A stretch of 20,000 bases of DNA from assembly GCA_008632985.1 (NCBI GenBank), contig QPGO01000203.1:107366-127365 (forward strand), read 5' to 3'. Positions 1-20,000 of this stretch are shown here, piece by piece (the first letter of the stretch is position 1; each line of letters begins with the position of its first letter). Source of the stretch: Psammoneis japonica (Eukaryota). Below the pieces are notes generated by a model. That model made no database searches. It was not told where the DNA came from and was given only the letters and a program-made list of their open reading frames with translations. A program made the position numbers and the translations under genes.

Positions 1-113
1 TCAAATCACTACACAAATGAGTCACATCGATACGAAAATCTGACTTCATCGGGTCCATCTGCGGCACAGCTATTTCCATCTGGCTTTCTCGTGGCGCCCA
101 CATTGTCCACCAC

Positions 114-946: not shown

Positions 947-1394
947 GGTTGATCTCCAGAAATCGTCGGGAAAAAATGAGTGGAAGCGCAGAAAGAGCGA
1001 GCGAGCGAAAGGGTGGACGGACCGTGAAGCACGCGAACCTAATATGAATGGTACACTCTACATACAATACTAAGCACCCCCGAACCCCCGCGAATAACTT
1101 GGTCCTCTTCTTCCCGTCCACTCTAGACTTCTCAGCAGCTCTAGAGACCTAGACCCTACTTCTAGACATACAAACTTTGCGGACATCTTTAGCAGCTACA
1201 ATACTACAGCTGGAATAAGGCTAAACAACATTTACACAGCCACCCTTCTGCCTAGATTCTTGGATAATGTCTAGAGGCCTGCTGCGTCGCTCGAGAAGAC
1301 AGTGCTGTCGGGGAAAGAAAGGCACGTCGGGTCGCAGAACTAGACCCCGGTTCTGGTTATAGAGAAACCTCCTATCGCGTCTTGGATGCCATCC

Positions 1395-2091
1395 TTACCA
1401 TCCAAACTTCCACCATGCCTTTTTAGGACCTGTCTTCTCCGCCGTGACTGGTATCTCCCTTGACTTTGCTTGTTCGTTTCGAGCTTTGCGTTTTTCAAAC
1501 TCATCCCGAACCTTCTGTCTGTATTCCACAAAGTCAGCTTTTCTCTTTGCTGCTTCTTCCGACATGTTTCCTCTTGCCGCTTCTAATCTCTTTTGCAGGA
1601 TTTCTAGCTTCTCTTTTCCCAGCTTCTCTGCAGCTTTGTCTCGTTCGCTAAGGTGCCAATCTTCCATGCAAAACATGAGTTCCAATTTTGTATCCAAACA
1701 GTCACGAAGTAAATTAGGATTGTGTTGTTCCTGAAAGAAGATGTCAGAAATACGCATTGAACATTACAAAAGAATGAGTAGACATGAAAACGACCGGAAG
1801 AACAGCGAACGCCGCTCCAAGATAACTTACCATGCCATTGAGGAAACATGTGTAGTACGCTCTCGCGGCGTATTCACATGATTCAGGCGAAGATGTCTTT
1901 ATATGTTTAGCAGCGCTTAGTTTCATTTCTCGAATCTTTTCTTCCGACGGCCATTCTGACATTCCAAGAGGAATCGAGCCAGGAGGTTTATCCGGTATCT
2001 TGTCTGGATCCAGCACGGGCCTTTCATTCTTGTCAAACTGAGCCGTTTCCCAAAAATTTTTGGGTTTAGCTGTTGACTCCTCTTTAGCCAT
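1395..2091 (-). CDS. Twin CX9C (CHCH-like) protein, probably mitochondrial intermembrane space; 2 exons (2091-1831, 1730-1395), 198 aa
   Basis: A phase-0 intron 1830-1731 (GTAAGT...CTGAC...TTTCAG) joins ORFs 1744..2091 and 1395..1757. The product has C-EYAARAYYT-C and C-LDTKLELMF-C, a charged helical tail and ends WWKFGW. Confidence 0.75.
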
Positions 2092-2261
2092 CCTGCTGCG
2101 AACCAGCCAATCTCAGCGTCGTTGACAACGGCGATGACATTGTGAACGCGAGAAACGCGAAGGAAAAAGAAAATTGACAATTTGCCTCCGAGCCCATAAC
2201 CTACTCACGTCATCCCTTTGTGGGCGCGGTAGGTGAAGCGCAGACGCTTCCTCTCTACTTA

Positions 2262-2583
2262 CTACAAATTGCAAAACAATTGCGCGATACACGTGCCCGA
2301 AGGTCGAATATCGTTGCCCGAAGCAACATTCCTCCTTCGCGCAGATGTCTATTCTACATAGTTAGTATATGGTATTGAAAATCTCATTGTAGTCGCATGA
2401 GTCGTTGAAGTAATTTCATCAATGACCTCTGTGGTACTGTGCTACGTGATCTACACAAATCGGACATTCTCGAATGCTGGTATATTTTCTACGGTCTCTA
2501 CGTGCGCGAAGCTCGAATTTCGTGCCCGAAGCAACAATCACCCTTCGGGCACGTGTATCGCGCAATTGTTCAGCAATTCGTAG
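2262..2583. mobile_element. MITE (non-autonomous Tc1/mariner-type), 322 bp
   Basis: 42-bp terminal inverted repeats at 2262-2303 and 2542-2583 (CTACAAATTGCAAAACAATTGCGCGATACACGTGCCCGAAGG, 3 mismatches), flanked by TA at 2260-2261 and 2584-2585. Internal repeats of TGCCCGAAG; no coding capacity. Confidence 0.85.
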
Positions 2584-2604
2584 TAGCTAAAATCGCTCTC
2601 CATC

Positions 2605-2712
2605 ATCTTACTCTACTCTACTCTAGCTAGAGTAGCTAGTAGTAGAGCTAGCTAGCTAGAGAGTAGTGAGAGTAGCTGGGGCCCCACTCTAGTTAGTAGA
2701 GGCTATAGAGAA
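2605..2712. repeat. Low-complexity CTAG/TAG/CTAC-rich tract
   Basis: CTCTACTCTACTCTAGCTAGAGTAGCTAGTAGTAGAGCTAGCTAGCTAGAGAGTAG...; similar tracts lie at ~1121-1170 and ~11908-11940. Confidence 0.7.
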
Positions 2713-3717
2713 AGAGCTCTCCCTGTGTGCGGCATGTAGAGAGTAGAAGGCCACCGACAGTGGCCCTGGCAGCCCCAACTGCTCTAGCTCTGCTAGCCAG
2801 AGGCAATTGTTTCCTAAACTCGGGCTTGAGTGACTGAAGACGCGTCGCCAGAATGCCAAGGTCAGGACCTTGCCTCCTGCCTCGGTGCCCCCACTTCCAG
2901 CATGGCCAATGAGAGCGCAAGCTCAACTCCAGTGATGAATCATCTACAATGAAACAGACGCTGCTCGTGTGCTGTAGAATCGGACACCCTGTCCAAGTGA
3001 CGTATTATACATAGACTAGACAGACGAAAATTCAAGTAGCATCCCATGGTGTGCCCCCCAAAGAGAAAACTCTCCAATCCGCATTCCCCACACTATTGGG
3101 AAGAAGCAGTTGCATCTCAATGCCCTGACAGATCCTAATCGCAGACAACAAGTCGATTATTCGATGATGCATTGGGGCTTTCACGTAGACCCCGGCGTTT
3201 TTGCCATTGCGGTAGCAAGTCTTCATAATGAGTAGCTCTACTAGACGGGAGCGTACTCTATGTAGGACCCAGTGGCAGCATTCGAGTCGTGATGAGCCAT
3301 GCCTACATCTTGCTGTGAACACTTTGATTTGGCGGACAGTTTCAAGTCACCCGCGTCCAGTCACAAGCATAACGTGCAATAAGCTGAGTAGTAGATTGCC
3401 AACAAGTCGAGCCGTGGATGCCGGTGCATCAGTCGCTGCTGCAAGGATGGTCGGAACTAACGAGAACCAAGCCAACGAAGACATCTCTGGGGAGGTGTCG
3501 GGAAGTAGCTGGCGCAACCCATTCTGCAGAGAATAAGTGTTTCGGACAAGGAACACTTCTATATTGAGGCGCAAGTCTGACCAAAATTTTAATAATACCA
3601 ATCTTTCATCGCAGTCCTCTCTAGTAGAGAATAACTGGCACTAGAAGAAGATCCGAACCTTGTGGATTTAGTGGAAATGGAACTGCGTGATTGAATCGTT
3701 CTTTCGTGAAAGCAATC

Positions 3718-4620
3718 TTACCCCTTGCTACTCAAAATCAAGTCCTTCAACACCTCTTCAACAATATTTGAATCACTCTGTGATATCCGAAAGCCAGAAG
3801 ATGTCAAGCTTTCCGGACGCTGAGCGAGTGCCTTGCGACAGATTTCGGACACCACACGAGACCAACATGGTGAACGCTCGTCTTCGCCATTACTACTGCC
3901 GAAGGACGACGCATCTTGGCAAACATCCACGGGAATCTTGAAAATATAAACGACAACATGACTTGTAGGTTTTGACTCGGAATCATCATCCATGTGACTT
4001 ATTGGTGCATGCAACCATCCCACTGCCTTCCCACCATTGCTGGGGATTAAACGTGCTTCACCACTAGTCCAATTTACAACGCTTCGAGTGCTTTCTTCGT
4101 TTCTCGAACCAACGACACCTTCCCCTATCGATAGTATCTTCGATCCCTTCCAAGATTTGTTTCAGAAATGTACAATAGTGCACCAAAAACGTTACATTAG
4201 CCCCGGCAGAACGGGAGTAGGTATTTGCGGCATCACACACAGAGAACCGTGCAGGTGACATAAACTTACTTCGCTAAGCGTCCGGATAAAGACAATCCGA
4301 TGACTGCTACCAAATTCAATCAAAGGCTCCGCATCGACCGGCATGGTAAGTCTCCACAAGGATACTTGCTGCTCCCTCGCCACCAACGTTCTATCTTGTG
4401 TTCGTCGGACGGGTGTTTCCATCAACTTTTGTCGTTTGTGTTTTGCAACAGCATCTCGGATAGTGGCAGGCAGTCGGACGCTACCATTACCGACAAAACA
4501 TTCATCACAATCACAATCTCGATAGCTACTTCCACCAACGGCAAACGTCATGGAACGGAGAAAAGGATCTTCTTCCACATCTTTCTCCAAAGACAAGTCG
4601 TTCGTGTCGTCTTTATTCAT
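3718..4620 (-). CDS. Hypothetical protein, 2 exons (4620-4270, 4146-3718), ~259 aa; 5' end uncertain
   Basis: A phase-0 intron 4269-4147 (GAA|GTAAGT...GGAAG|GGA) links ORF 4192..4680 to the frame of ORF 3718..4023 (RTLSE|GSKILSIGEG...). It contains a DCDCDEC motif; no family recognised. An upstream exon via intron 4713-4632 is possible. Confidence 0.6.
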
Positions 4621-5020
4621 TCTCTCTATTTCTGGAGGCGCAGAATTATGTATGTGCAGTTTGCAAGTTGCAGCCGACAAACCGAGCCCTTTGATGCTTT
4701 ATCTCGCAGTTACCGACAAGGAAGCGATACACTCTCCAGCAACAGCACCGTTGTACAGCATCAAACCGAGGACAGCAGTTAGTAGTTAGTACAAGTGCCG
4801 ACCACTGCTGGTTACGCTGTGCAACCAAACCTCTTGCGTCATGGTCGGTGATGGTCGGTGGTCGGTGTTCGGTGCAGTCGCGGGAGTCGGGTCGGTCGTC
4901 AACGAGGTACGAGCTCCAAAATATCATAGCGTGCTCAATTTTCTTCCCAGTTTCAGTTGTTGCTGGCTGCGGTATGCCTTTCAATAGTTGACTGCAATAA
5001 CACCCTCTTTTATATCTATC

Positions 5021-5424
5021 ATGTCGAGTGGAAAGATTGTTGTTGAGGTTTCCAAAAAAGCCATTGCAAAGGTTCGATGGGACGTCTTTGGGGAATTACC
5101 AAATCTCAACATACGAACCGGCAACAAAATTTTAAAGCGAACGCACAAAGGTACTTATTATGCTCGGTATTATCCTGATTCGATAGACAGCGCGGCTCGA
5201 AAGGTGAGATTATTTTCGTGAGAGTATTTGATTGGTGTTGGATATTTTCTTAGTCTTGCTAACATTTTTTGTTGTGCCACTTTCTCTTTGCCATTCTGCT
5301 TCAGACCATGCCCGAATATCAATCGGAACAAGCGGAACGGAGACTAGAAAAACTTCAATTGCTTCGACGCAGAGGAAAAGGCCCGCCAAAGAAGGGTTCT
5401 GGAAAGCGCAAGCAGAAAAAGTAG
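5021..5424 (+). CDS. MRPS33: Mitochondrial small-subunit ribosomal protein mS33 (Rsm27/MRPS33 family), 2 exons (5021-5203, 5305-5424), 100 aa
   Basis: Intron 5204-5304 (GTGAGA...GCTAAC...TTCAG). The spliced protein has VFGELP..N.RTGNKILK...G.....YYP and the C-terminal RRRGKGPPKKGSGKR typical of mS33. Confidence 0.9.
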
Positions 5425-5560
5425 GATATCAGAAAATGCAAAAGAGGTATGGCAGAGTTTGCAGTAGAGATTGGAATTGCTTTTCAGAGCTTTACAAAAA
5501 CAATACTTCTAGAAAAGACGATGTTACTTTCATTCGAAACTCGTCCTAAACTCGCTCTGG

Positions 5561-7273
5561 CTATATCTTGTTTGTGGCCTCAAATAATGAGGAGTCGCCT
5601 ACCCTTTGATTTCCATTGTTGTTTATACTCTTTGGTCCAAAATTGCAAAACCCCGGTCCAACCGGGCTGGCTGAAATGTTCCGTGCAAGCATTTGACATC
5701 GGAATTTAGCCACACGGTCCAATACAAGGGTACTGTTGTTGTCGTCCCCCACAATATGGTCACCACTCCATAGTCGTTCAGCTGCAGCCGATGCACGTGG
5801 CCATACGCGGCTGACGAAATTACTAGCATCCACCCGTTCTCCCCACATGCTGGCATGTCCGCCAATCACCAATTGCTTTTGCCGCAATGATGCTGCCGTA
5901 AAGTTTCGAGGCAAACATTGATGAAAATCCAAGTACCGCTTGTCTAAATGATCCAAGTACCAGCAACCCGATATCAGTACTTGGAACGAAGAACTTGTAG
6001 CTCGCTGAATCGTGTCGACATTGTAACCTTTCCAAACGTCCACAATGGCGCCGTTACTATTGGAGAGCAGACCCAGATCGAACACCTCTTGCCACACAAT
6101 TACGCTTTTCTTCTTGGAGGCAACAATCTTCAAGAACTCTTGTTCAAAATATTCGTAGAGTTGTGTTTCGTTCGTCATGTTGTGCTGTTGCATCCAGGAT
6201 TGGATGGTTGGATCATACTCCCAACAATGAAAATCAACTTCATCTCCACCCAAGTGAACAATACTATCCGGAAAGAGCTCTACAATCTCGTCATATAGCC
6301 GAGAAATAAAGCCATAAACCTTGGGTGACGTAGGATTGAGCGGTGTTGATGGTTGTGGACAGCGTGACATGAGTTCTGGATGGGACATGGCAATGGCTTG
6401 TGTATGTCCGGGCATGTCAAACTCTGGAATGACACGAATCCCTCGAAAGTAGGCTTCTTGAACCACTCGGCGAACGTCATTGGGTGTATAGACAAGGCTA
6501 GGACTAAAACTACCCTTGTCGGCCAGCTCTGGAAAATTCGACGAACGAAACGGAAACGATTGGTCGTCCGTCATGTGCCAATGCAACACGTTCATCTTGT
6601 TCATAGCCATGGCGTCCAGGGTAGTGTCCAAGATGAGTTCCAAAGGCAAAAAGTGACGAGCCGCATCAATCATGAGACCACGATGTGGATATTCCGGCTT
6701 GTCCTTGATGGCAAGTGGCGTAAAGGAAATCACAAACACGTCGTCGTGATTGCCATCATTATCACTGTTCCATCCGTACTTTACCAGCTGACCAAACGAT
6801 TCAAATCCACGAAGCATTCCAAAGACAGACTTGGACTCTAGAACTGCATTTCCAACTTGTGGTATTGTCAAAGTATATGATTCATCCATTCCTTGCTTCA
6901 ATTCCACGTTATTCGTCGACACGTAAACGTCAAGTCTTTCGAGAGCTTCCAGGGTTGTTGTTGCATTATTGTCAGGAGCAATGTTGTTGGGAGGGTTTTC
7001 GTTTGCTGATGGTATGCCCATGAACCAAAATCCCATGTATCTTTGCCGCGCCTTTTCAACAAATTCCTTTACTAAATCATTTTCTTCTGGTGCGTGAAAT
7101 TGAATCGTAAAGTGGTTTCGATCCAAGGTACGCAACAGGAAATCATTGCCAAACGTGTATTGCTCGTACCGAGCTGCAGGAAAGATTTGATGGTAGTTAC
7201 AATTATCCGTCTGGGAAATTGCTCTTGTTATGAACAGCAACACGATCCCTACAAGCATCAGGAGAGGAACCAT
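5561..7273 (-). CDS. Beta-N-acetylhexosaminidase, glycoside hydrolase family 20 (HexA/HexB-like), secretory pathway, 570 aa
   Basis: N-terminal signal peptide, then DESYTL, PHRGLMIDAARHF, NKMNVLHWH, IPEFDMPGHT, catalytic HLGGDE, WYLD and GGHASMWGE...WPRASAAAERLWS. Intronless. Confidence 0.95.
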   Translation of the reverse strand: MVPLLMLVGIVLLFITRAISQTDNCNYHQIFPAARYEQYTFGNDFLLRTLDRNHFTIQFHAPEENDLVKEFVEKARQRYMGFWFMGIPSANENPPNNIAPDNNATTTLEALERLDVYVSTNNVELKQGMDESYTLTIPQVGNAVLESKSVFGMLRGFESFGQLVKYGWNSDNDGNHDDVFVISFTPLAIKDKPEYPHRGLMIDAARHFLPLELILDTTLDAMAMNKMNVLHWHMTDDQSFPFRSSNFPELADKGSFSPSLVYTPNDVRRVVQEAYFRGIRVIPEFDMPGHTQAIAMSHPELMSRCPQPSTPLNPTSPKVYGFISRLYDEIVELFPDSIVHLGGDEVDFHCWEYDPTIQSWMQQHNMTNETQLYEYFEQEFLKIVASKKKSVIVWQEVFDLGLLSNSNGAIVDVWKGYNVDTIQRATSSSFQVLISGCWYLDHLDKRYLDFHQCLPRNFTAASLRQKQLVIGGHASMWGERVDASNFVSRVWPRASAAAERLWSGDHIVGDDNNSTLVLDRVAKFRCQMLARNISASPVGPGFCNFGPKSINNNGNQRVGDSSLFEATNKI

Positions 7274-7638
7274 CGTGGACTCTAGCTACTAGTGTTTGAA
7301 TGGATTGTAACAACAAGCGCAGCGAATGCAAAATCTTCGGTGGCGCGCAAAAACCTTGGGGCCCATTCGGGCACTGTGAGAACAGCACACGCCGCCACTG
7401 CTACCGGTATCATCAAGCCCTAAAAAATCATAACCGAATCATCACTCTTGGGCGATGCGATGCATGTTCGGTGTGCGATGCTGCTTTCATCCTCTTGCCA
7501 TCAGAGCAGCAGAGCAAGGCATACATACCGTGATCAGAGGCTGAGTGATGCGACATTACTGAACGCACCTCGAAAACGACAGGTCATCTTTCCGTCCGTC
7601 CCTGTCACGCCCACAACAGCCAGAATCCCCGGTTGGCA

Positions 7639-8889
7639 ATGAAGGCTCGTTATTGGAACCACGGAATAAGCGTCGGAATGTGGTACCATAAGCGACAATA
7701 TAAAGTTGCTGCTGTTGTTGGCCTGTTTTTTCAAGTCTCCTCGGCGCTTCACGTTGGCACCACCGCCCGCAGCGGGTATCGTTTCAAGCGTGTGGTGAAT
7801 GAGAACGAACGCAAGTCGTTGGATTCGTTTTATCGACAGCACTTTAGGAATCAAAAGAGGGTGGCCCCTCCAGCTCCAAAGGCGAGAGATGAAGTATACA
7901 GTCTCATGGATAACGAATGTTCCATCGTGGCGGCCGTCCGACTCTGCCCAGCCAGATCTCAATTTGTATTTCTGCGGTCCCTCTGTGTATCAAGGAACCA
8001 CCGACGTCAAGGTGCAGCACTGCTCTTGATACAAGAAGCTCTACACGACTACAACATGCGGCAAAGGGATGCATACTCTTGCTTTTGTTTTGCTGAGAAC
8101 AGGCTGCGCCCTCTCTATGAAAAAGCTGGCTTTTCCATCATCATGAACAAAGATTGTGTTCCTGAATGGATGTGGAGGTCGTATGAGCTTGTGGCGAAGC
8201 GCATGAAACGCAAGCATCAGGATATGCGGCTTTTTATCAAAGACGCAACAAAACAGCCGACTATCGCCATGCAAGTGGTTCTACTGCAGCATTCCAACGA
8301 AGTGAAACGACCAACTTCGACAGCGCGATTGTTCTTTGCGGCGGCGGAGGGGTACAACGAACGCCGCCAGGATCCACTGCTATCTGAGCATGTTACTGTT
8401 GACAAATGGATATGGTCCGGACGAAACGATACGAAAACAATTGAAAACAATTTGAAACAAATAATTGAACGACAAGGAATGTATCCCGTATTGGTTTGGA
8501 CCGGTGCTGGCAACACGACCTTTCAAAACAGCGACACTAAGACGGCTATTGAGGCTAGTACCCCCCTCTTTATCGTTTTGGATGGTACTTGGCAAGAAGC
8601 TCGGGGGATGTTTCGAAAGTTGTATTGTCTTCAAAAACTGCCCCGCCACACAATCATGTCCCAATCGCCATCCCAGTATCGTTTACGAAAGGATTATTCT
8701 GGTTGGCGATATCGCTTTGACGGCGGTAACCATGGCGAAAACCTGTTGTGCACGGCTGAGGTCATTGCAGCACTACTCAACGACAATGGTAACAAAGTGG
8801 GCGGAACATTGGTTCTAAATCGTCTTGATAAGTTCCAAGACGCCTTCAAAACAAGAGAAGGCGCGAGGTTGGGTTCTTATGAAGACTAA
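7639..8889 (+). CDS. GNAT acetyltransferase fused to a DTW domain (TapT/DTWD2-like tRNA acp3U transferase)
   Basis: GNAT motifs LRSLCVSRNHRRQGAALLLI and LRPLYEKAGF. DTW motifs LLQHSNEVKRPTSTARL, IVLDGTWQEARGMF, SQYRLRK and LCTAEVIA. Start is ATG 7639 or 7678; a hydrophobic leader ends VSSA-L. Confidence 0.85.
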   Translation: MKARYWNHGISVGMWYHKRQYKVAAVVGLFFQVSSALHVGTTARSGYRFKRVVNENERKSLDSFYRQHFRNQKRVAPPAPKARDEVYSLMDNECSIVAAVRLCPARSQFVFLRSLCVSRNHRRQGAALLLIQEALHDYNMRQRDAYSCFCFAENRLRPLYEKAGFSIIMNKDCVPEWMWRSYELVAKRMKRKHQDMRLFIKDATKQPTIAMQVVLLQHSNEVKRPTSTARLFFAAAEGYNERRQDPLLSEHVTVDKWIWSGRNDTKTIENNLKQIIERQGMYPVLVWTGAGNTTFQNSDTKTAIEASTPLFIVLDGTWQEARGMFRKLYCLQKLPRHTIMSQSPSQYRLRKDYSGWRYRFDGGNHGENLLCTAEVIAALLNDNGNKVGGTLVLNRLDKFQDAFKTREGARLGSYED

Positions 8890-9633
8890 GTCAGAAAATG
8901 TTGTTCCGAAAACCTTCGTTCGGAAGTGAAGTATGGTCACGCCTACAATGCTACATACCGGTATTGTAGGACGCCTTGGCGGAAAGGTACTCTCACGTTT
9001 CATACTTCTCAACGGTATGTACAGCGCAGAGTCGAACGTTTTGCTTGCGCCTTTGCTTATGTTCACTTTGGTCCTTGCAGTTTATAATCTGTTCTTTTTT
9101 AGAGAATAACATGCATCGACGCATTTGGAGCCTACAAGGAGCAATACTGAGACCGAAGAGGAAGGGCATTGCGCTAATGAGAAAATGGAGCATGGAGCAA
9201 CTGTTGGTATTATTGCTGGGATGAGGAGCTTCGATAAAACGGCACGCACGTATAGATAGAGTTGTAAGGGCTTGTCGGCCACGAGTCGGCTGCAACGCCA
9301 TGTCTGAATCAGAGAAGAAGAAGACACGACAACAAACTCAGCGGCCGATGCTGATGACGCTGACATGCCGACACTGCTCAACATGGTGACGGCTTCTTGC
9401 ATTCCAAAAACATGCTCTGTAATAGCATTCAATATTCAGTTACATCTCACGTTGACTAGCATAGTACTCTACAAATAAGGCTAGCAAAGTAGATGACAAG
9501 GGAACCGCCGACTATTACAAATTACTCTCCCTCGTGCTCATCGAGGGAGTATTAGTATTCCTAGTTTCAAACAAACACACATAGTCGATTGCAGCTCTAC
9601 CGGTACGAGCTTGATGGACGTCGACATCGCGAC

Positions 9634-10639
9634 TTACGCAAGACGGTCCTTGCGTTCATCGCTATCGCGAAGCCGCTGCTTTAGCTCCGCAATGCGCTTG
9701 TAGATGGAAGCACGATCCTCCAGCTCTGCGTCCTCCTCGCCGGGAGCCATCGTGCGAGCTCGCTTGGAAGTCTTGCGAGGCTTGACAGGGGTGGGAGGCA
9801 CAGGCCTGCCCCAAGCTAGGAGCCCAAGGTAGGTTGCAAGACGCTTGGCGAGCTCCCAATGGGTTTCGTCTTTGCGACGCCAGGTGATGATTCCACGTGG
9901 ACCGAAGCGAGCGACGAACTCAGGGTCGTCAAAAGGGAGCGACTTGAAGACATCGGTGTTCTCCCAACCCCAGTTCTTCAGAATGTAGAAAAGCCTCTCG
10001 ATCGCTTCGACATGGAACTTGTCAAAAACGTCCTTCGGCGAGGCAACTTGAAGCAGAGCAGGGAAATCCGATGGATGAATCCGTTCCAGCAACGACAGCA
10101 GCTCTGCGCCGAGTGGAGCCACCCCCAAAAAGAAGACCTGCTCGTTCCACTCGCGAAGCAAGGCCTTGTGCTTCTCCTCCCACCTTTTCTCTGCCTCCTC
10201 GCCGAGACGAAGAGCTTCCTCGTCGCCCCTCTTCGACTCCTCCAGCCTCGTCTCCACAGACAAAGCGCGTGCCACTTCCTCTCGCGCGGCGGCCCACAAT
10301 GCCTGCTTGTTTTCGAGAGCCAAGGCACATCCCGTCTTAGCCTTGCTCAAACGTTTCCCTTCGGCCTCGCTTTCCCTGCGATGCAACGTCAAAGAGCAAC
10401 GACAAGAGGTGAGTGTCGAAAGCACAGTGCAAAAATTGATCTTAATTACAGCCAAGCACAAAAACTCACGCGATCTTCTTCTCGTACTCTCGTCGCACGG
10501 TCTTGGGGTTTCTCGACGCGTTCTCCAGCACGACGTTCTTCGACCGATCCTCGTGATCAAGCTGGACATGATCGCAGATAGCGAGGAGATAACCCTGCTT
10601 CTTCTCGTCCAAAGCACGAAATGCGGCGCTCAACTTCAT
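9634..10639 (-). CDS. Orphan coiled-coil-rich hypothetical protein, 2 exons (10639-10470, 10375-9634), 303 aa
   Basis: ATG in a CCACCATG context (MKLSAAFRALDEK...). Intron 10469-10376 (GC|GTGAGT...CTCAC...CGCAG|G) joins ORF 10466..10672 in frame to ORF 9634..10617 (...EKKIA-ESEAEGKR...). Splice sites are kept in the second copy. Confidence 0.7.
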
Positions 10640-10852
10640 GGTGGATGATGATTGTACGGATATGATGTGCAATGGACTCGTCGCAAAGCGAAAATTATGA
10701 GGGCAAGGAATGAGCAGACTGAATGAGCAGTCACGGGAAATTTGCCGACATGAGCAGTCTTCTTCCGTAGAACTTGTACCCGCTTCTACGAATTCCTATC
10801 TCAACTGACATTTTTTGCAGCGACCGTTTCATTCCAGCAATTCAAATCTTTT

Positions 10853-11137
10853 GTACTGGAAGCTACGTGATTTTCACGGATTCCTACTGAAACGGCAGGT
10901 TTTTCACGGTAACGGCAGCTCGAGTGCATTGTACTGAAAGTCACGTGAATGCCACGGATTCCTCTTCCTAAAACGGCAAGTTTTCTCGATGGTAACGGCA
11001 GCTGAGGTGTGTTGTATTGGAAGCCACGTGAACGCCACGGATTCCTACGGAAACGGCTGCTTTGGAAGGTAACGGCAGCTCGAGTGCATTGTACTGGAAG
11101 CCACGTGAATGCTACGGATTCCTATTGAAACGGCAGT
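10853..11137. repeat. Tandem array of ~3.6 units of ~80 bp upstream of the orphan gene
   Basis: Units start at 10853, 10931, 11014 and 11091 (GTACTGGAAGCCACGTGAATGCCACGGATTCCTA...AAACGGC...GGTAACGGCAGCTCGAGTGCATT). Confidence 0.9.
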
Positions 11138-11853
11138 GTTGCTGGCAGTATGAAACCACCAGGACGCGTCTCCTTTTTTCCCTCCGACGTTTGTCGCGGA
11201 CAGAATGCAAATCGGGAGTGTGTTTGATGTCATTGATTTTTGTGCTGCAGAACTTGCACTCGTCCTTTCTCCTACCCTTTGGTTTTGACTGGAGAGCACG
11301 GCGGTGGTTGATTGCCACGGGGCTGATTGATTCAAATACACCTGTCGTGGATTCGAGATATTCAAAAGCTGACGCCCACCAGCTTGCTTGCCAATGCGAT
11401 AATATTGTCTGGGTTGCTGGTTTGCTTGGGGTGTGCTGTACGCCAAACCGTGGGAGGCGAACTAGAGTACAGTAGTAGTAAGGCATTTACAAGAGCGTGA
11501 CCAGTCTAAGTCCGTATCGTGATCAATGGTATTTCTTCATCGGAACAAATGTAAGTCAAAGTGCAGGACTCAGATGTTTAAAAAAGAGCTATTCTTTGCG
11601 TTGAGGCCTTCTTTGGCATGCATGGTGTGCTGGACGGGTTTTGGAGATACCGTTCATGTCTTCAAACTGGCTACTTGGCCACGTCTGTGCAACTACAGTA
11701 GCGCACTGTCTTGCGGTCATTTGCACTTTTCCACTACATAAGCCCCCCGCTCTTCAAACTTCACGACGGTTGCAGTAGATCACCGGTATCCCAGCCGACT
11801 GTATCTACAAGCGGATCAAGACCGTTGCTATCAACACGCAATTTTCAATCGGC

Positions 11854-11870
11854 TCTGTGTGTGTGTGTGT
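11854..11870. repeat. (TG)n microsatellite
   Basis: CTGTGTGTGTGTGTGTT run. Confidence 0.7.
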
Positions 11871-13464
11871 TTGCTCGCGATTGTCGCGGCATGCACCTTT
11901 GATTCGCTATAGAGTCTAGCTACTAGCTCGCTACTAGATAAGGTGGTTAGTCTCATTGTGTATGTTTCCGCCGCAGATTCACAATTGTCGAGTAGATCCC
12001 AACATTACACCGTGGAGAACGTTCTTGAATAACGTCGTCTCGGGGATGGGTTCCATTGCAAAATGGTCGTTGCATCCATAATCACCATTCTCAGATGGAA
12101 CAATAGATGAATCCCTTTTTTAAAATGGTAGATACTTCGTTGGACTTTAGAAAAACTGGGTCTTGACGTCTTCAATGGATACTTTGTCCGGTACGTCTTC
12201 CTTCGATGCCTGCTTTGGTTCAGACAACGACCCGCTAGAGACAAAAAGGGATACCGTAGTGCCAAATAGCAAGATTCGCTCGAACTCTTTCGACCTTCCA
12301 TGCAGGTCACATGTGCTCAACTCTCTCCAAGCTGAGCCGTTTATGCATGGAGGTGGCTTTCTTGCGTGAATCATTGCCTGCGTTTTGAGATGGTTCCAAA
12401 GGCGAGGCGGTGCCGAGAGGCAGATATGGCGGAGCCTTACTTGTCGCTGAGTTGCGTCACCTTTGCCTCTGTTCTCTGCTCCCCTTCACGGTAAACTTCA
12501 TAAGCCTGGTCCAAGTAAGACGTTGCCTAGTCCCTGTCTCCCTGGCGCAGAGAGAATGCAACAGCCAGTTCGAAAGCAAGGGCTGTACCCTGAAGGAAAC
12601 CAGACCTCTGAGCGGTGAGCGGTGCGTGTTGAGTTTTCATAGCCCTAAATACTTGCTTGCTTTATTTGCGGGGCTCTCCTCTGCACCACTCACCACGCCT
12701 TGAACCTTCATGCTTCACTTTCACGGTTCGAGGGACACTTCTGTTAGGGTAATGGTCATTGTCATGTCACGTTTTGTGTCTGTTGACACTATTCCCATGG
12801 ATCCCCATGGTTTCCCATGTGTACATTCTACGTCGAAATTGGTACATTGGTCATTGTGCAAAAAGTCATTGTTCAATACTGCAGCTTGCCTGTACAATGG
12901 ATAGAAAATAGTCAATCAAATTTTCAAAAATGGTCATTCTCAGGTCATCTCACCTGCCCTCATCATTTTTTGGACATTTTGTCCATGGGATTCCATGGGA
13001 CGGCGTGGGAAGAGGTGAGAGAAATACTCCCCAGCGATCCACGAATGAATTTTATGTACTGACTGCTTGCAGTATTCCCGAAAGCTGGGGAGAGAATCTC
13101 CCATGAAGCGGATCATCGCAAAAATCCCGATTCAAAGATTTTATCAAGGTTACATACACAGTAATATATAATACCGGTCTCAGGCGTTGTTTGCGTGTTG
13201 CCGGTTGCCGCTGATGATGGCGATGGGCGATGCCGATGGCAAGATAAAAAACACAAAACAAACAACAAGCAGCAAGTGGCAAGTTATACAGCAGTACGTA
13301 GTCATCGTGCGACTGAATATACAGCGTCTTGAACAAGTCAACTCGGAAGCAAGTAAGCTTTGTGGAAGAGTGAACAGACCAGGAATTTGTGTCTGTGCAG
13401 CGCGGAAGCACAGAGGACGGGATAGCTCATCAATAATGTTGCCTCGCCGTCGGAATCATCAACT

Positions 13465-13780
13465 ATGTCTTGTCCCAATTGTGGCTCCAGAGACGTTGAG
13501 CAGCATGGTGCGTCCAAAGCATCTATTGCACATGATGCGGCGTTGTCGTTGAGGAAATCCCGCGATTATTTCGTCGGTGGATTTCGTAGAGGGAGCGGGA
13601 GGTTCGTTTACTTTCGTGACGCAGTTTGTGTCTGCAACCAGTTCAAAGGTTTGAACTGAAGGCAGCAGCGGTTGATTTGGCCTTGACTCAAGATAAGCGA
13701 CGCTAGCAAATGATCGTAGACGAATTCAGGAAGTGGCTAGCAGACTTCGAGTGGGGTCACACTATGTGGATGCTGCTCAC
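13465..13780 (+). pseudogene. BRF1: 5' fragment of TFIIIB subunit BRF1 (Zn ribbon and start of first cyclin fold)
   Basis: Across two frameshifts and several stops it reads MSCPNCGSRDVEQHGASKAS/CT*CGVVVEE/AIISSVDFVEGAGG...QFVSATSSK...DSR*ATLANDRRRIQEVASRLRVGSHYVDAAH, which matches the BRF1 N-terminus. Confidence 0.85.
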
Positions 13781-13927
13781 ATACTCTCCAGGACATATGG
13801 TAGAAACGCTGTGTGGTCGTGGCGCCTGATTTTCTTTGATCATATTTTTGGGCTATGCGGAAAAGGTCACAATGAGAGTTGGAGATGTCAGTGTGGTGTT
13901 GGTGGCCTTCGTTGTTGTGGGCTTGGG

Positions 13928-14130
13928 TTGCGGAAGGATTATTTTGGTTGGCGATATCGCTTTGGCGGCAACAAAGCGAAAACCCATTTTACACGGCTGA
14001 GGTCGTAGCAGCACTACTCAACAACAATGGTAACAAAGCTGGCGGAGCATTGGTTCTGAATCGTCTTTCTAAGTTCCAAAACACGTTGAAAGCAAAAGAA
14101 GACGCGAGGTCGGGTTCTTATGAAGACTAA
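13928..14130 (+). pseudogene. 3' fragment of the GNAT-DTW gene
   Basis: LRKDYFGWRYRFGG/ENPFYTAEVVAALLNNNGNKAGGALVLNRLSKFQ...GSYED* matches 8683-8889, with a frameshift and no 5' part. Confidence 0.85.
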
Positions 14131-14890
14131 GTCAGAAAATGCTGTTCCGAAAAAACCTTCGTTCGGAAGTGAAGTATGGTCACGCCTACAATGCTACATA
14201 CCGGTATTGTAGGACGCCTTGGCGGAAAGATACTCTCACGTTTCATACTTCTCAACGGTATGTACAGCACAGAGTCGAACGTTTCGCTTGCGCCTTTGCT
14301 TGTACTCACTTTGGTCCTTGCAGTTTATAATCTGTTGTTTTCTAGAGAATAATATGCATCGACGCATTTCGAGCCTACAAGGAGCAATACTGAGACCACC
14401 TTAGGAACTGAAGAGGAATGGCATTGCGCTAATGAGAAAATGGAGCATGGAGCAACTGTTGATATTATTGCTGGGATGAGGAGCTTCGATAAAATGGCAC
14501 GCACGTATAGATAGAGTTGTAAGGGCTTGTCGGCCACGAGTCGGCTGCAACGCCATGTCTGAACCAGAAAAGAAGAAGAAGACACGACAACAAACTCAGC
14601 GGCCGATGCTGATGACGCTGACATGCCGAGACTGCTAACATGGTGACGGCTTCTTGCATTCCAAAAACATGCTCTGTAATAGCATTCAATATTCAGTTAC
14701 ATCTCACGTTGACTAGCATAGTACTCTACAAATAAGGCTAGCAAAGTAGATGACAAGGGAACCGCCGACTATTACAAATTACTCTCCCTCGTGCTCATCG
14801 AGGGAGTATTAGTATTCCTAGTTTCAAACAAACACACATAGTCGATTGCAGCTCTACCGGTACGAGCTTGATGGACGTCGACATCACGAC

Positions 14891-15635
14891 TTACGCAAGA
14901 CGGTCCTTGCGTTCATCGCTATCGTCAAAAGGGAGCGACTTGAAGACATCGGTGTTCTCCCAACCCCAGTTCTTCAGAATGTAGAAAAGCCTCTCGATCG
15001 CTTCGACATGGAACTTGTCAAAAACGTCCTTCGGCGAGGCAACTTGAAGCAGAGCAGGGAAATCCGATGGATGAATCCGTTCCAGCAACGAAAGCAGCTC
15101 TGCGCCGAGTGGAGCCACCCCCAAAAAGAAGACCTGCTCGTTCCACTCGCGAAGCAAGGCATTGTGCTTCTCCTCCCACCTTTTCTCTGCCTCCTCGCCG
15201 AGACGAAGAGCTTCCTCGTCGCCCCTCCTCGACTCCTCCAGCCTCGTCTCCACAGACAAAGCGCGTGCCACTTCCTCTCGCGCGGCGGCCAACAATGCCT
15301 GCTTGTTTTCGAGAGCCAAGGCACATCCCGTCTTAGCCTTGCTCAAACGTTTCCCTTCGGCCTCGCTTTCCCTGCGGTGCAACGTCAAAGAGCAACGACA
15401 AGAGGTGAGTGTCGAAAGCACAGTGCAAGAGTCGATCTTAATTACAGCCAAGCACAAAAACTCACGCGAACTTCTTCTCGTACTCTCGTCGCACGGTCTT
15501 GGGGTTTCTCGACGCGTTCTCCAACACGACGTTCTTCGACCGATCCTCGTGATCAAGCTGGACATGATCGCAGATGGCGAGGAGATGACCCTGACTCTTC
15601 TCGTCCAAAGCACGAAATGCGGCGCTCAACTTCAT
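14891..15635 (-). CDS. Second copy of the orphan gene with an in-frame 87-codon deletion; exons 15635-15466 and 15371-14891, 216 aa; possibly a pseudogene
   Basis: Same ATG context and intron (15465-15372) as copy 1. The frame is open through the junction ...LPFDD-SDERKDRLA*. Confidence 0.55.
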
Positions 15636-15845
15636 GGTGGATGATGATTGTACGGATATGATGTGCAATGGACTCGTCGCAAAGCGAAAATTATGAGGGC
15701 AAGGAATGAGCAGACTGAATGAGCAGTCACGGGAAATTTGCCGACATGAGCAGTCTTCTTCCGTAGAACTTGTACCCGCTTCTACGAATTCCTATCTCAA
15801 CTGACATTTGCAGCGACCGTTTCATTCCAGATATTCAAATCTTTT

Positions 15846-16130
15846 GTACTGGAAGCTACGTGATTTTCACGGATTCCTACTGAAACGGCAGGTTTTTCAC
15901 GGTAACGGCAGCTCGAGTGCATTGTACTGAAAGCCACGTGAATGCCACGGATTCCTCTTCCTAAAACGGCAAGTTTTCTCGATGGTAACGGCAGCTGAGG
16001 TGTGATGTATTGGAAGCCACGTGAACGCCACGGATTCCTACGGAAACGGCTGCTTTGGAAGGTAACGGCAGCTCGAGTGCATTGTACTGGAAGCCACGTG
16101 AATGCTACGGATTCCTATTGAAACGGCAGT
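15846..16130. repeat. Second copy of the ~80-bp tandem array
   Basis: Near-identical to 10853-11137. Confidence 0.9.
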
Positions 16131-16375
16131 GTTGCTGGCAGTATGAAACCACCAGGACGCGTCTCCTTTTTTCCCTCCGACGTTTGTCGCGGACAGAATG
16201 CAAATCGGGAGTGTGTTTGATGTCATTGATTTTTGTGCTGCAGAACTTGCACTCGTCCTTTCTCCTACTCTTTGGTTTTGACTGGAGAGCACGGCGGTGG
16301 TTGATTTCCACGGGGCTGATTGATTCAAATACACCTGTCGTGGATTCGAGATATTCAAAAGCTGACGCCCACCAG

Positions 16376-17110
16376 AGTAGAACGTTAGACAATAAACAGA
16401 ATAGCCAACGCATAACAAATGGCGTACTTACTGTCTCCATGAGCCTAGCGGTACTGGCACAGCCATTGGTAGTTCTCGTTCCAAGAGCAGTCGAGAACAT
16501 CCCAAACAAACCCGATGTCCTCTAGCTTTTAACGTCGTTCCGCTGACATGCCGTCCTTGTTTTGCCTCTGTGTATTTACCCATGACCCAAGAACCGTCCT
16601 GGTGGGAACCAACGCTACAATACCATAAAAACGAAATGCATAGAGTAGAACATTAGACAACTAAATCAGAATGGCCAAAGTATAACAAATGGCGACACTT
16701 ACTGTCTCCATGAATCTCTCGGTGCTGACACAGCTGTTGGAATTTTTCATTCCAAAGGTAGTCGGAAACATCCCAAACAAATCCAACGTTGTCTAGCTTT
16801 TGACGTCTCTCAGAAGGCATAGTGTCCTTCTCCTGCCTCTGTCGTAACACCCGTGGCCCAAGACTCGTCTCATCCACACTAGGAACTAACGCTGCCAGCA
16901 AAGCGCAGAAAAATGAAAAGATACTTAGATCATTGTGACAAGAGAAGAAACGAATCGAAGCACAACAAGTCGCAATACTTACTGTCTCCATGAACTACAA
17001 TGTAGAGCAACAGATTCTCATAATGTTTCTCCCACAGAAAACATCCCAAACGAAGCTCCTTTTTCCCAATTCTATTTTTCTGTCGTTGGGCCACAGGCTC
17101 AGATATTGGG
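16376..17110 (-). pseudogene. Helicase-associated (HA) repeat protein pseudogene, three exon/intron modules
   Basis: Repeats such as LVP....LG.WV..QRQ....M..ERRQKLDNVGFVWDV...WNEKFQQLCQHREIHGD. Introns 16982-16892, 16702-16615 and a truncated one from 16431 all fall at HGD-A|GTAAGT. There is a frameshift in the first module and TAA and TAG stops in the last. Confidence 0.85.
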
Positions 17111-17209
17111 CAATGCGTCAAGTCGGTACCGGCACTGTAGGGGCCCTAACAGCTGTACTGTTGGAAATGGTGAATTAAAAGTTCAAACACCGAAATCAGA
17201 TAGCACGAA

Positions 17210-20000
17210 GAAGACGCATGCGTCAGCGCTCATCATGTGCTCCACGTGAAGCACTAAAACTGCCGATGGAAGCAGTCATGTTGTTCTCTTTTAACTCTTA
17301 GAAAGCATTGTGATAACAAGCTTGTCTATTTTAGCCTCAGGATCAGACCTTAGAGGACTGAGGTGGCTCTGGAATGGTCACCAGAAGGACAAATTACAAC
17401 AGTTGAAAGAGAACAATCCAGCTGAGAGCTGTGAAAAGAAAGCAAGAAAGAAAAGAGTCGCTCTCACGGTGTGTGAGACATTTTGCTGCTTTGCCTTTTT
17501 TATCATGAGTGGAAGAGGCAGAGGAAGAACTGGCAACAGAAGCCAAGGAAGAGGACCCTCAGGAAGGGGAAACAAGAGAGCGGCAAGCAAAGCCACAAGG
17601 GCATCAATCATTGTGTCTGCTGTGTTGGAAGTGCCAAGCAAGCATCTGATTTTCAGATTGCTGCTGAGTTCATCATCAACTACATTAAGAAGACTTGTGA
17701 GTTTGGAAATGACATTGCAACTGCACTCAACACTTGCACTCCATGCGACATGAGTTCCAAGAAGCCGACTTTGCAGGTCAGCTTGGCTGGAGAGGACAAG
17801 GCAGAAGAGGTGTTGAGCAAACAGTGTGAAATTGAATTTAAGACAGAATTTGATGCTCACATTAAGAGGACCCAGACTCATGAGAACAACCTTGTCAAGG
17901 CTTGTGCTTTGCTCTGGGAGAGATGCTCCAAGGCCATGAAGAACAAGATTCAAGCAAGAACCGAGTTCCAAACCAAAATTGAAAACGATCCCATCGAATT
18001 GCTCAAGGCCATTGAGGAGCATGCATTGAACCATCAAGAGCACAGGTGTGACATGGCCATCATCTCAGATTCAATGAGAGCTGTGCTGGAAACCAAGCAG
18101 AAGGAGAAGGAGAGTCTCCGAGATCACACCAAGAGATTCAGGGTTGCAAGAGACATCATAAAGTCTCACATTGGAGGACCAATTGTCCTTACCAAGGCAG
18201 TGCAAAGCATGTCAGAACATGACGAGCACAATGCAGATGCCATCAAGAAGTGTCAAGAAAAGGCGTTCAGCCAATTGATGGGTTACGTGCACTTTGAGAA
18301 TGTAGACCAGTGCAAGCATGGATCAATTCTGACAGGATTGAACACCCAGCAGTCCCTCAAGAATGACCAACATCCCAAGTCTGTTGCAGAAGCCAACACG
18401 GTGTTGAGCAACCACACTTTTGACTGCATTGGTCAGCCTGATGACAACCGCGACAGGAACAATTGAAGCAACAACTCTGACTCCAAGAAACAAGAAGAAA
18501 GCCAAGAAATCATGATGTCCTTTGCTCAGTTAGAAGGCAAGTGTTGTTGCTGTGGCAAGGCCAGACACAATTCCAACAAGTGCTGGGAAAGGCCAGGAAA
18601 ACCTCAAGCAGAATGGGCCATCAACAAGGCCAAAGCTGAGCAAGAAACAAGCAATGCTCAAGCAAGTGACAATGTCAGCACAGCCAACTCTTCTGCCAAA
18701 GAATCCACTGGAACAAAATCTGCTGTTTCAGGATGGGCTGGCATGCACATCGACGCATCTCTCTGCCAGGATCAATCTGGCAGCATGAGAGACTGAATTT
18801 TGTTGGACAACCAGTCCACAACCATGATCTTCTGCAATGAGAAGCTTGTCACAGACATCTGTCCATTGGATGAAGTCACGCGTTTGCACGCCAAGGGCGG
18901 AGTCCAATCACAACACACAAGGCCACAGTGCCAGGGTTTGGCGAGACTTGGTTTAACCCAGATGAAATCACCAACATTTTTGCTCACTCCAACATGAAGA
19001 AGAAGCACAGGATTGCAAGTGATTCCTCACAAGACAGCACATTCACCGTTCATCTGCCTGACAAGAAGGTCAGGTTCGAGGAGGACAGAAAAGGGCTGCA
19101 CGTTTACAAGCCCAAGATTGACGACACTGGAGCTCAGCTCCAATTTGTGCAGAGTGTGGAAGAGAACAAGAAGTTCTGCACTCCACGACAGTTTGAGAAA
19201 GCCAAGAGAGCTGGGGAATCATTGCATGCATTGGGAAACCCAACTGTGAATGATCTGAAGGCCATCATTTGCATGAACAGCATCAAGAACAATCCCGTCA
19301 CAACGGAGGATGTAGATTTGCCCGAGAAGATTTTTGGACCAGACATTGGAAGTCTAAAAGGCAAGGTCACAAGGCAGAAGCTGGAGCCAGTTGCAGAAGA
19401 CTGTGTGGAGATCCCAAAGGAGCTCATTGCAGCACAGCACAAGGTTGCTCTTTGCCTGAACGGCCTCAAGGTGAATGGACTGCCATTCCTCACCACGGTG
19501 TCACAAAACATTTTTTGTTGCACTGCACAACTGCTCAAGGACTTGACAAGAAGCTCTGGAAGGTGTGCTGTGAGTCTGCAACAAGGCTGATTTGAAGGTC
19601 ATGCACATTTGTTGCGACAACAAATTCAGGCCCATTGGGAATGCACCAGAAGACAAGTTCAATCTCAAGATGAATTGCACAAATGCTCAGGAGCATGTCC
19701 CGGAAGCTGAAAGGAACAACCAAGTTATTCAAGAATGCACCAGGGCAGTCCATCATCTGCTGCCATTCAAGTGTCTGCCAAAACTCATGGTCAAAGTCGT
19801 GGTCACTGAAGCTGCTAAGAAGCTCAATTGTTTTCCAGCCAAGCACGGCATTTCCAAACATTGCAGTCCAAGAATGACTCTCCATCAAAAGAATCTGGAC
19901 TGTGACAAGAGCTGCAAGACAATGTTTGACACTCATGTGCAGGCTCACAACAACCCAGACCCCAAGAACACCCAAGAGTCACGGACTTTGGATTGCATCA
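17210..20000 (+). mobile_element. Degenerate Ty1/copia LTR retrotransposon, diatom CoDi-like (gag, Zn knuckle, protease, integrase); continues past the window end; left boundary approximate
   Basis: gag ATG at 17505 (MSGRGRGR...). CX2CX4HX4C at 18542-18583. Protease D*ILLDNQST at 18791. Pre-integrase IFGPDIGSLKGK, then integrase core CDNKF...EHVPEAERNNQVIQE...LNCFPAKHGIS. The protease-then-integrase order is copia-type. Several frameshifts, and TGA stops at 18464, 18794 and 19571. Confidence 0.93.

Follow-up and report, generated by a model that had tools for sequence, protein, structure and literature searches.

How did a mobile element come to lose nearly all of its TA dinucleotides when the DNA beside it did not? 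The question is raised by the 20,000-nt stretch of contig QPGO01000203.1 analyzed here (the window), which carries at its 3' side a Ty1/copia-like retrotransposon that is truncated by the window end inside pol. An earlier note on this DNA had counted 16 TA in 17400-20000 and 22 in a part of the hexosaminidase gene (6001-6600), and had proposed that A:T pairs were changed to G:C at TpA on both strands of the element. Both counts were reproduced, and the comparisons described below support the proposal in its main lines. They also add three points absent from the note, namely decay of CpG, a spared leader resembling a long terminal repeat (LTR), and an apparent preference for TAY.

Base composition predicts 172 TA dinucleotides in 17400-20000, so that the 16 observed correspond to an observed/expected ratio (o/e) of 0.09. 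In the host part (1-17085) the o/e is 0.62 for TA and 0.99 for CG; at this host level about 106 TA would be expected in 17400-20000 (Poisson P(X<=16) = 1.4e-27). The depletion of both TA and CG starts sharply at ~17400, and the loss of TA is confined to mobile DNA, the host sequence being normal. Within the internal region (17402..20000, forward strand) CA and TG are in excess (o/e 1.65 and 1.69), CG is depleted (0.26) and AA, which the note had described as abundant, is undepleted (1.02). The TA o/e is almost the same in the three codon phases (0.08, 0.12 and 0.10), so the effect is mutational, at the level of the dinucleotide, and not one of codon choice.

The direction of the change was read from homologous proteins. 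Consensus columns were those in which at least half of the homologues agree, and retention was calculated for residues with at least eight such columns. None of the 17 consensus Tyr columns is retained in the window (His 8, Cys 7, Phe 1, Ser 1), and the other consensus residues are retained at 62-100%, including Lys at 80% and Asn at 93%. Among the 35 columns in which Tyr is the commonest residue of the homologues, the window has Cys in 11, His in 12, Phe in four, Tyr in two and other residues in six. The best 150 homologues contain on average 3.2% Tyr, 1.7% Cys and 2.7% His, and the conceptual product of the window (838 codons) has 4 Tyr, 39 Cys and 35 His. The counts made earlier for single open reading frames (ORFs) agree with ours: the gag ORF (17483-18466) contains 14 Cys and 3 Tyr, and the last ORF at the integrase end (19592-19999, 136 aa) lacks Tyr. 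The three stops found at that time (18464, 18794 and 19588) are indeed all TGA.

Most of the motifs for which the note had given Tyr as the consensus at positions that are now Cys or His agree with real homologues. Tyr occupies the respective columns in 12/19 aligned homologues for KACALL, 10/20 and 15/21 for LNHQEHRCDM, 13/22 for DHTKRF, 21/26 for KHGSIL, 23/27 for DQHPK, 16/30 for KCCCCGK, and 16/32 and 16/29 for ISKHCSPR, with 12 to 27 homologues aligned at the Tyr columns of the gag-like ORF. Two motifs do not agree, the KKTCEFG column being mostly Phe (8/13) and the KQCEIEF column having Tyr in 2/13 alone, and only seven homologues are aligned at the HCVCCVGS column.

At the nucleotide level, eight TA-normal relatives served to define 63 consensus TA sites, at which TA had to occur in three or more of them and in no less than half. 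In the window 22 of these sites read TG, 22 read CA, three are still TA, eight are TT and eight are other dinucleotides. Retention of TA (5%) thus lies far below that of consensus AA, TT and AT (55%, 53% and 46%) and of non-TA dinucleotides overall (37-65%). Pairwise codon alignments show the same: the TA of a relative is kept in 3-4% of cases here and has become TG or CA in 51-57%, compared to 27-45% and 12-27%, respectively, between pairs of TA-normal elements. In Tyr codons 2/30 TA are kept, a loss of ~93%. The confinement of A>G and T>C changes to TpA (44/63 sites now TG or CA) rests on the comparison with relatives and not on mutations recorded directly.

Both strands are marked to the same extent. 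TG and CA outcomes are equal in number (22:22), and the corresponding amino acid outcomes are nearly so (His 8, Cys 7); the specificity for TA far exceeds that for other A:T sites. Along the element the two outcomes form no strand-coordinated runs (32 runs in 59 sites compared to 30.4 in shuffles, P = 0.70), and an apparent shift from CA to TG in the 5'-to-3' direction is not significant (14:8 vs 8:14). Being equally frequent and intermingled, these products show that TA was converted by transitions on both strands; the strand bias that the note had expected of editing confined to the RNA is not seen. Since neither TA>TG nor TA>CA can create a stop codon, long frames persist. TpA-directed A:T>G:C hypermutation of this copia element on both strands is well supported by these comparisons, and the change is close to saturation, with very high dinucleotide specificity.

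A search with an 8-row alignment as query gave 79 related metagenomic loci, of which 69 have a TA o/e of at least 0.55; the same query found no relative among viral contigs. One locus, L008, stands apart with a TA o/e of 0.13, the next lowest values being 0.41 and 0.42. It is a metagenome contig of 2351 nt (1-2351) with a GC content of 0.53 and a CG o/e of 0.75, which against its relatives keeps 7% of TA and has TG or CA at 48-51%. Tyr is replaced with Cys or His throughout L008 (HRITCDS, LHVCTP, QLCHALG, SKCCSPR), within a frame that stays open for more than 560 codons, and such Tyr-poor 'ghost' ORFs could pass for intact genes. A tree was built after masking Tyr, Cys and His. It places the window with the TA-normal loci L002, L004 and L005 (Shimodaira-Hasegawa-like approximate likelihood ratio test 88, not strong) and L008 nearest to L009 and L003. 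As the two TA-poor elements lie apart in this tree, the two events look independent.

Among the proteins of the family, 113 cover at least five consensus Tyr columns. Cys or His takes at least half of these columns in one protein (P0050) and 25-50% in three (P0145, P0036 and P0052), the remaining 109 being below 25%. The public predicted proteins P0050, P0145, P0036, P0052 and P0022 have no or nearly no Tyr and are rich in Cys and His; for instance, Tyr is absent from 18 consensus Tyr columns in P0145 and makes up 0% of the whole of P0050. These proteins may represent additional hypermutated copies from other organisms.

Loss of CpG forms a second layer. The region 17400-20000 contains 37 CG (o/e 0.26), and out of 34 consensus CG sites two are kept, eight read TG and four CA. 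Arg has become Cys at 3/16 consensus Arg columns, and the in-frame TGA at 19571-19573 (forward strand) lies on an Arg column (Arg in 19/36 homologues) and is of the CGA>TGA type. Part of the excess of Cys, His and TGA, which the note had ascribed to Tyr codons, is therefore due to CpG decay of Arg codons. LTR retrotransposons of the diatom Phaeodactylum tricornutum are described as CpG-methylated (Maumus et al. 2009, PMC2806351). Deamination of 5-methylcytosine in methylated transposons accounts for the CG o/e and the changes at Arg columns seen here, that is, for the CG part alone; it is unable to remove TpA.

The two layers are separable in the relatives. In L040 and L073 the CG o/e falls to 0.14 and 0.04 with TA o/e of 0.78 and 0.89, and altogether five loci (L040, L073 and L051-L053) show strong depletion of CpG (o/e 0.04-0.29) at normal TA (0.50-0.89). 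L008 shows the reverse, having lost TA at a CG o/e of 0.75. CpG decay and TpA loss are thus separate processes in this element family, and the latter is independent of the former. A TCG-specific loss of CpG, as would be left by amphioxus ADAT2 or a Microbotryum-type process, was considered and is not detectable, T preceding 27% of the residual CpG compared to 38% in relatives (p = 0.19).

The depletion does not extend over the whole element. The repetitive leader at 17081..17401 (forward strand), a candidate 5' LTR of uncertain start, is not hypermutated: it contains 15 TA (o/e 0.67) and 11 CG (o/e 0.63), as against 0.09 and 0.26 in the interior (Fisher tests: TA, p = 1.8e-7; CG, p = 0.016). 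If the leader is restricted to 17160-17401, the contrast has p = 2.6e-5 for TA and p = 0.095 for CG. In TA-normal relatives the LTRs have TA o/e of 0.53-1.23 and the interiors of 0.56-0.70. Such LTRs are not rich enough in TA to account for the contrast, and the border between leader and body is therefore a real feature.

The sequence context of the change was examined at Tyr codons, which offer the cleanest flank test because both outcomes alter the protein (background TG and CA 3% each). When the window and L008 are pooled, YTAY sites gave 23 TG and 8 CA, and RTAY sites 4 TG and 9 CA (Fisher p = 0.015); taken singly, the effect has p = 0.033 in the window and p = 0.21 in L008. The 32 surviving TA include 12 in YTAR, compared to a background of 18% (p = 0.009), and one in RTAY, compared to 28.5% (p = 0.0003). 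Read on the edited strand, these three results agree in favoring an A before a pyrimidine, and a 5'-TAY-3' preference of the process is suggested by them. In tRNA, A34 is preceded by an invariant U33, and bacterial TadA edits UACG, both of which fit TAY. A flank rule pooled over all sites (RTAR 0:12) and a bias towards synonymous outcomes were downgraded, since TA-normal controls show the same bias.

Further copies of the family were sought in sequencing runs. In the Logan contigs of run X1, 39% of the sampled window words are present, and a 341-nt contig equals 19416-19756 without a difference, so that the bases are supported by read data in part. The sampled words are all but absent from runs X2 and X3, and no RNA run is listed as containing any. 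Four differences from the unique flank (16531, 16853, 16865 and 17004) show that the X1 contigs represent a different haplotype or strain. Altogether 657 X1 contigs match the stretch at an identity of at least 80%. The 490 variable places among these copies are dominated by transitions (A>G 112, G>A 102, C>T 81, T>C 95), each transversion type occurring 7-16 times. Places with G or C in the window and A or T in other copies are not in excess, so the other copies as a group are not less GC-shifted.

The sequence context was listed for 40 of the 490 places, 34 of them internal, where the window departs from nearly all of the other copies. About 17 of the 34 are of CpG type: ten read CG in the window where the others read TG or CA, five show the opposite, and two are adjacent TG-versus-CA pairs of uncertain ancestor. 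The rest consist of two TA-type places (18190 and 19220), five other transitions and eight transversions. One TA-type difference is listed in the leader (17197).

A footprint of this kind has a precedent. The note knew of no diatom pathway that would produce it, and literature searches indeed found no report of TpA hypermutation in a diatom; the signature itself has been described in a 2026 bioRxiv preprint on the chlorarachniophyte Bigelowiella natans (10.64898/2026.01.13.699255). According to its main text, 231/302 new nuclear point mutations in mutation-accumulation lines fell into two integrated viral regions, 230/231 of these were A>G or T>C, all at TpA, and the rate was ~6e-7 per site per generation. 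The same text reports 324 TpA-poor coding sequences enriched in DDE, reverse transcriptase and zinc-finger domains, and proposes an ADAT2-like deaminase. As far as that text goes, the two cases share the alteration of TpA alone to TpG or CpA depending on the strand, foreign or mobile targets, and low TpA with high CpA and TpG.

They differ in several respects. The targets in B. natans are integrated DNA of nucleocytoplasmic large DNA viruses (NCLDV) and virophages, whereas here an LTR retrotransposon of a diatom-like stramenopile is affected. De novo mutations were measured there, while the signature here is deduced from comparison with relatives, and the depletion is deeper (o/e 0.09 compared to a Rho of 0.45 in the B. 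natans NCLDV region). The spared LTR-like leader, with its border inside the element, the CpG decay and the suggested 3'-pyrimidine preference go beyond the B. natans description. The text of that preprint, supplementary tables aside, has no mention of diatoms, retrotransposons, CpG, flanking or trinucleotide context. The signature as such is thus already known (B. natans, 2026), and what is new here is the host lineage, the kind of target, the saturation, the spared LTR and the possible TAY motif.

Other known systems resemble the footprint less closely. Fungal repeat-induced point mutation (RIP) ruins repeated mobile elements by C>T changes on both strands, mainly at CpA, and enriches TpA. 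It is alike in being dinucleotide-specific, restricted to transitions and present on both strands, and in leaving long open frames or recognizable homology. As the note had stated, it runs the opposite way: C>T at CpA is not found here, and TpA (o/e 0.09) is destroyed with enrichment of CpA (1.65) and TpG. Editing of retroelements by ADAR or APOBEC has been found fixed in genomes (PMC4866542), and there too a deaminase leaves clustered transitions in LTR retroelements. The one-strand A>G pattern with a 5' U or A is, in contrast, not found here, given the 22:22 balance and the untouched AA. ADAR and APOBEC footprints favor a single strand, on which they appear as G>A or A>G, and ADAR edits after a 5' A too.

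In diatoms themselves, the element resembles by description the Ty1/copia-like CoDi elements (Maumus et al. 2009, PMC2806351), being of copia type with a gag CCHC knuckle. The searched words and passages of that paper do not mention the signature. The text consulted of a P. tricornutum mutation-accumulation study describes a GC>AT bias and leaves hypermutation and TpA unmentioned (PMC6604790), and RIP, hypermut-, dinucleotide, TpA and deaminase are not mentioned in the available text of a 2025 preprint on diatom transposable elements.

Taken together, we consider it probable that the window holds the 5' part of a dead Ty1/copia element whose internal region was TpA-hypermutated by a host-driven process acting on integrated DNA. 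The A of 5'-TA-3' was changed to G on either strand until about 90% or more of the ancestral TpA had become TpG or CpA, and essentially all Tyr codons were thereby erased to Cys or His with no stops made. Ordinary decay of CpG to TpG or CpA is layered over this loss. The host process would act on the integrated DNA in place, targeting silenced mobile DNA as a defence, and its chemistry would most likely be that of a polynucleotide adenine deaminase of the TadA/ADAT2 type with an apparent 5'-TAY-3' preference. Because the B. natans signature was measured on integrated DNA, acting in place is the most economical reading here as well.

Several observations weigh against this account. The main one is the leader, a contiguous spared stretch that a region-wide process on DNA does not predict without an extra assumption. 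Targeting might follow transcripts, small RNAs or the chromatin of the element body; other possibilities are renewal of the LTR through recombination or gene conversion, and editing during reverse transcription, when the LTR is single-stranded for the shortest time. In addition, the listed differences between copies fit a loss of TA before amplification of the family as well as a loss in place. The flank rule is based on small numbers, and the TA-normal controls show that ordinary synonymous divergence inflates its strongest class (RTAR, 0:12). Surviving TA are concentrated in TTA/TAA in the window (13/16, p = 0.002) compared to 5/16 in L008. Finally, the DNA-editing ADAT2 of amphioxus is described as preferring GAA for adenine and TCG for cytosine (PMC10354150), so that an ADAT2 with a TA(Y) preference is hypothetical.

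If editing were instead coupled to retrotransposition, a nucleic-acid adenine deaminase would act on UA of the genomic RNA, which yields TA>TG, and on TA of the single-stranded minus cDNA, which yields TA>CA, and insertions would be born hypermutated. Reverse transcription in retroviruses renders the LTR double-stranded first, and APOBEC3G-type editing leaves it unedited; a spared LTR-like leader would follow, and the abundance of the family with its transition-dominated variation among copies (657 X1 contigs) would suit it too. Two substrates would, however, need equal editing to yield balanced and intermingled TG and CA (22:22), a loss of ~93% of TA in Tyr codons far exceeds one editing round, an element without Tyr is unable to cycle on its own, and the B. 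natans precedent concerns integrated single-copy DNA with no reverse transcription. We regard this coupling as unlikely. A different chemistry within the same in-place process would be oxidation of T to 5-hydroxymethyluracil (5hmU) or 5-formyluracil by TET/JBP, with mispairing to G; deamination might also act on a modified adenine. A T>C change seen on one strand equals A>G on the other, and the attacked base is indistinguishable from sequence; 5-formyluracil mispairs with G, and 5hmU of dinoflagellates is located at TpA. The 3'-pyrimidine rule, for its part, assumes A as the target, and a T-centered reading turns it into an equally possible 5'-purine rule. On balance we give such chemistry only a slight chance.

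Adaptive avoidance of TA (and CG) by an active lineage, as an escape from a UpA-cutting RNase, a TA-specific nuclease or an editing system, seems very improbable, even though L008 stays open over more than 560 codons and 5/6 of the TA that it keeps at inferred ancestral sites are in Tyr codons. An open frame is no proof of function where TA>TG/CA changes are unable to create stops. The outcomes are mostly synonymous (NTA codons TG 10 : CA 1; NNT|ANN junctions CA 15-17 : TG 2-5), but TA-normal controls largely reproduce this bias, with TG 26% vs CA 7% in phase 2-3 and CA 33% vs TG 4% in phase 3-1, and the window keeps 0/17 consensus Tyr and has three in-frame stops and two frameshifts. Unspecific causes, such as GC-biased gene conversion, WA mutagenesis of the DNA polymerase eta type, ordinary decay, or an artefact of assembly or base calling, are scarcely credible. 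A mild general A:T>G:C drift does exist (AA>AG 20% vs 6-11% in controls), and no more than 39% of the sampled words occur in run X1. Against this stand the retention of TA at 5% vs 46-55% for AA, TT and AT, the contigs of an independent run that carry the family (including the exact 341-nt match), and the same signature in the unrelated metagenome contig L008. The undepleted AA (o/e 1.02) and the retained Lys (80%) and Asn (93%) also disfavor the polymerase eta type process, which the note had named among its candidates.

Should the proposed in-place editing be real, a mutational defence that runs counter to both RIP and the common GC>AT bias would operate in diatoms and would not be peculiar to one chlorarachniophyte. 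A wider idea is that TpA editing directed at mobile and viral DNA after integration is an ancient defence common to Rhizaria, diatoms and at least one more organism, that of L008. It would read a strand-local 5'-TAY-3' motif, tell the body of a retrotransposon from its LTR, and leave long ghost ORFs without Tyr and rich in Cys and His, which could be mined in genomes and metagenomes to map the system and find its enzyme; we hold this tentatively, and doubt it somewhat more than we believe it. Diatoms are dominant phytoplankton with tractable model species, which makes the questions of enzyme and target choice testable. The present locus offers three handles, namely a saturated substrate with a sharp border between LTR and body, a candidate TAY motif, and a Tyr to Cys/His footprint without stops. 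Hypermutated copies with long open frames are at risk of mis-annotation as intact genes, and TA-poor, GC-shifted repeats bias estimates of composition and of element age.

The assignment to Ty1/copia, which the note had made as well, is based on homologues. The 220-aa ORF at 18928-19590 has 4227 relatives at E<=1e-3 in a library of 1.84 billion proteins, and RVT_2 lies downstream of the matching segment in three (P0026, P0015 and P0017) of the 11 long homologues scanned; in P0026 the segment matching the window covers residues 294-505 and RVT_2 residues 967-1194. As the homologues carry a copia-type reverse transcriptase, the element is Ty1/copia-like, the position of its own reverse transcriptase falling beyond the window end. 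The gag CCHC knuckle and an integrase-like region upstream of the reverse transcriptase are both present, and of the flanking LTRs with TG...CA ends that such an element would have, the window covers the 5' side alone, where the candidate leader has TGTTG...CAACA-type ends. The element's own ORFs in the window have no Pfam match. Copies of the same family are absent from the protein search, where the best identity to the 220-aa ORF is 55% near full length and at most 64% for partial matches.

The leader starts either at 17081, with TGTCGTTGGG, or at 17160, with TGTTGGAAAT, and ends at 17401 with ...ATTACAACA. Its termini read TGT(CG)TTGGG or TGTTGG... at the start and ...ACAACA at the end; LTRs of relatives begin with TGTTG, and that of L061 terminates in CAACA. 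The summed depth of X1 contigs rises from ~300 to 2800-4600 from the bin 17085-17201 on, and the distance from 17160 to the conserved pol segment (~1770 nt) is close to that in L059 (1765) and L032 (1778). The depth jump, the terminal motifs and the matching distance led us to take 17081-17401 as the 5' LTR, with an uncertain start. LTR pairs in metagenomic DNA relatives are spaced by 5.2-6.0 kb. The LTRs of relatives are too diverged for an informative alignment with the leader, the window contains no tRNA genes, and no primer-binding site was identified in it.

All internal features are on the forward strand. The gag-like ORF (17483..18466) encodes 327 aa with 14 Cys, 16 His and 3 Tyr, ends with a TGA at 18464 and has no Pfam match. 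It is followed by a CCHC zinc knuckle of the form CX2CX4HX4C (18542..18583), read from the translation within KCCCCGKARHNSNKC; its second residue is Cys here and Tyr in 16/30 homologues, and the ORF bearing it has no match to Pfam zf-CCHC. An in-frame TGA at 18794..18796 lies in a column that is mostly Trp in homologues (14/41) and represents a change of the TGG>TGA type, which involves neither TpA nor CpG. The conserved ILLDNQST... segment in frame 2 (18797..18906), common to the homologues, is presumably the protease region. In a frameshift zone at 18895..18907 the homologues cease to align in frame 2 and continue in frame 1, which carries the conserved pol segment (18907..19546) with the 220-aa ORF (18928-19590) that served as search query. 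The frame changes again at 19546..19547; one other X1 copy has 14 extra bases at this place, which implies a 14-nt deletion here relative to that copy. The integrase-like segment in frame 2 (19547..20000; ...CDNKF...EHVPEAER...SKHCSPR...) has no Tyr and is truncated by the window end. With in-frame TGA at 18464, 18794 and 19571 and frame changes near 18900 and at 19546, the copy is dead.

In the host part of the window, an intron-free ORF on the reverse strand (5561-7273, 570 aa) encodes a beta-hexosaminidase of glycoside hydrolase family 20, with PF14845 and PF00728 in all close relatives. Its best named relatives are from Cylindrotheca, Nitzschia, Fragilaria and Seminavis (43-55% identity), and one relative of the element is annotated from Fragilaria crotonensis; on both grounds the host is diatom-like. 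The protein collection contains no exact copy of the hexosaminidase, so its annotated genomes do not include the source. An ORF on the forward strand (7633-8889, 418 aa) combines a GNAT acetyltransferase domain (90-172) with a DTW domain (209-388).

A direct duplication of ~2.4 kb (8683-11113 and 13928-16106) has copies ~5.0-5.26 kb apart that are 88-100% identical by block, and its overlapping long ORFs have no Pfam match. Its parts at 10001-11000 and 15001-16000 have a GC content of 0.52 and a TA o/e of 0.33-0.34; with CG o/e of ~1.15 and CA+TG of 1.02 they lack the hypermutation signature. A 173-nt direct repeat (16426-16598 and 16697-16869, 74% identity) lies a short way upstream of the element, and an X2 contig omits 100 nt at 16602-16703. 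At ~17091, a 791-nt X2 contig from the same sample that tracks the unique flank up to 17091 continues with 255 nt of unlike sequence, and may represent an allele without the insertion or another arrangement. A 44-nt inverted repeat (2260-2303 and 2542-2585) is 93% complementary, with arms 238 nt apart.

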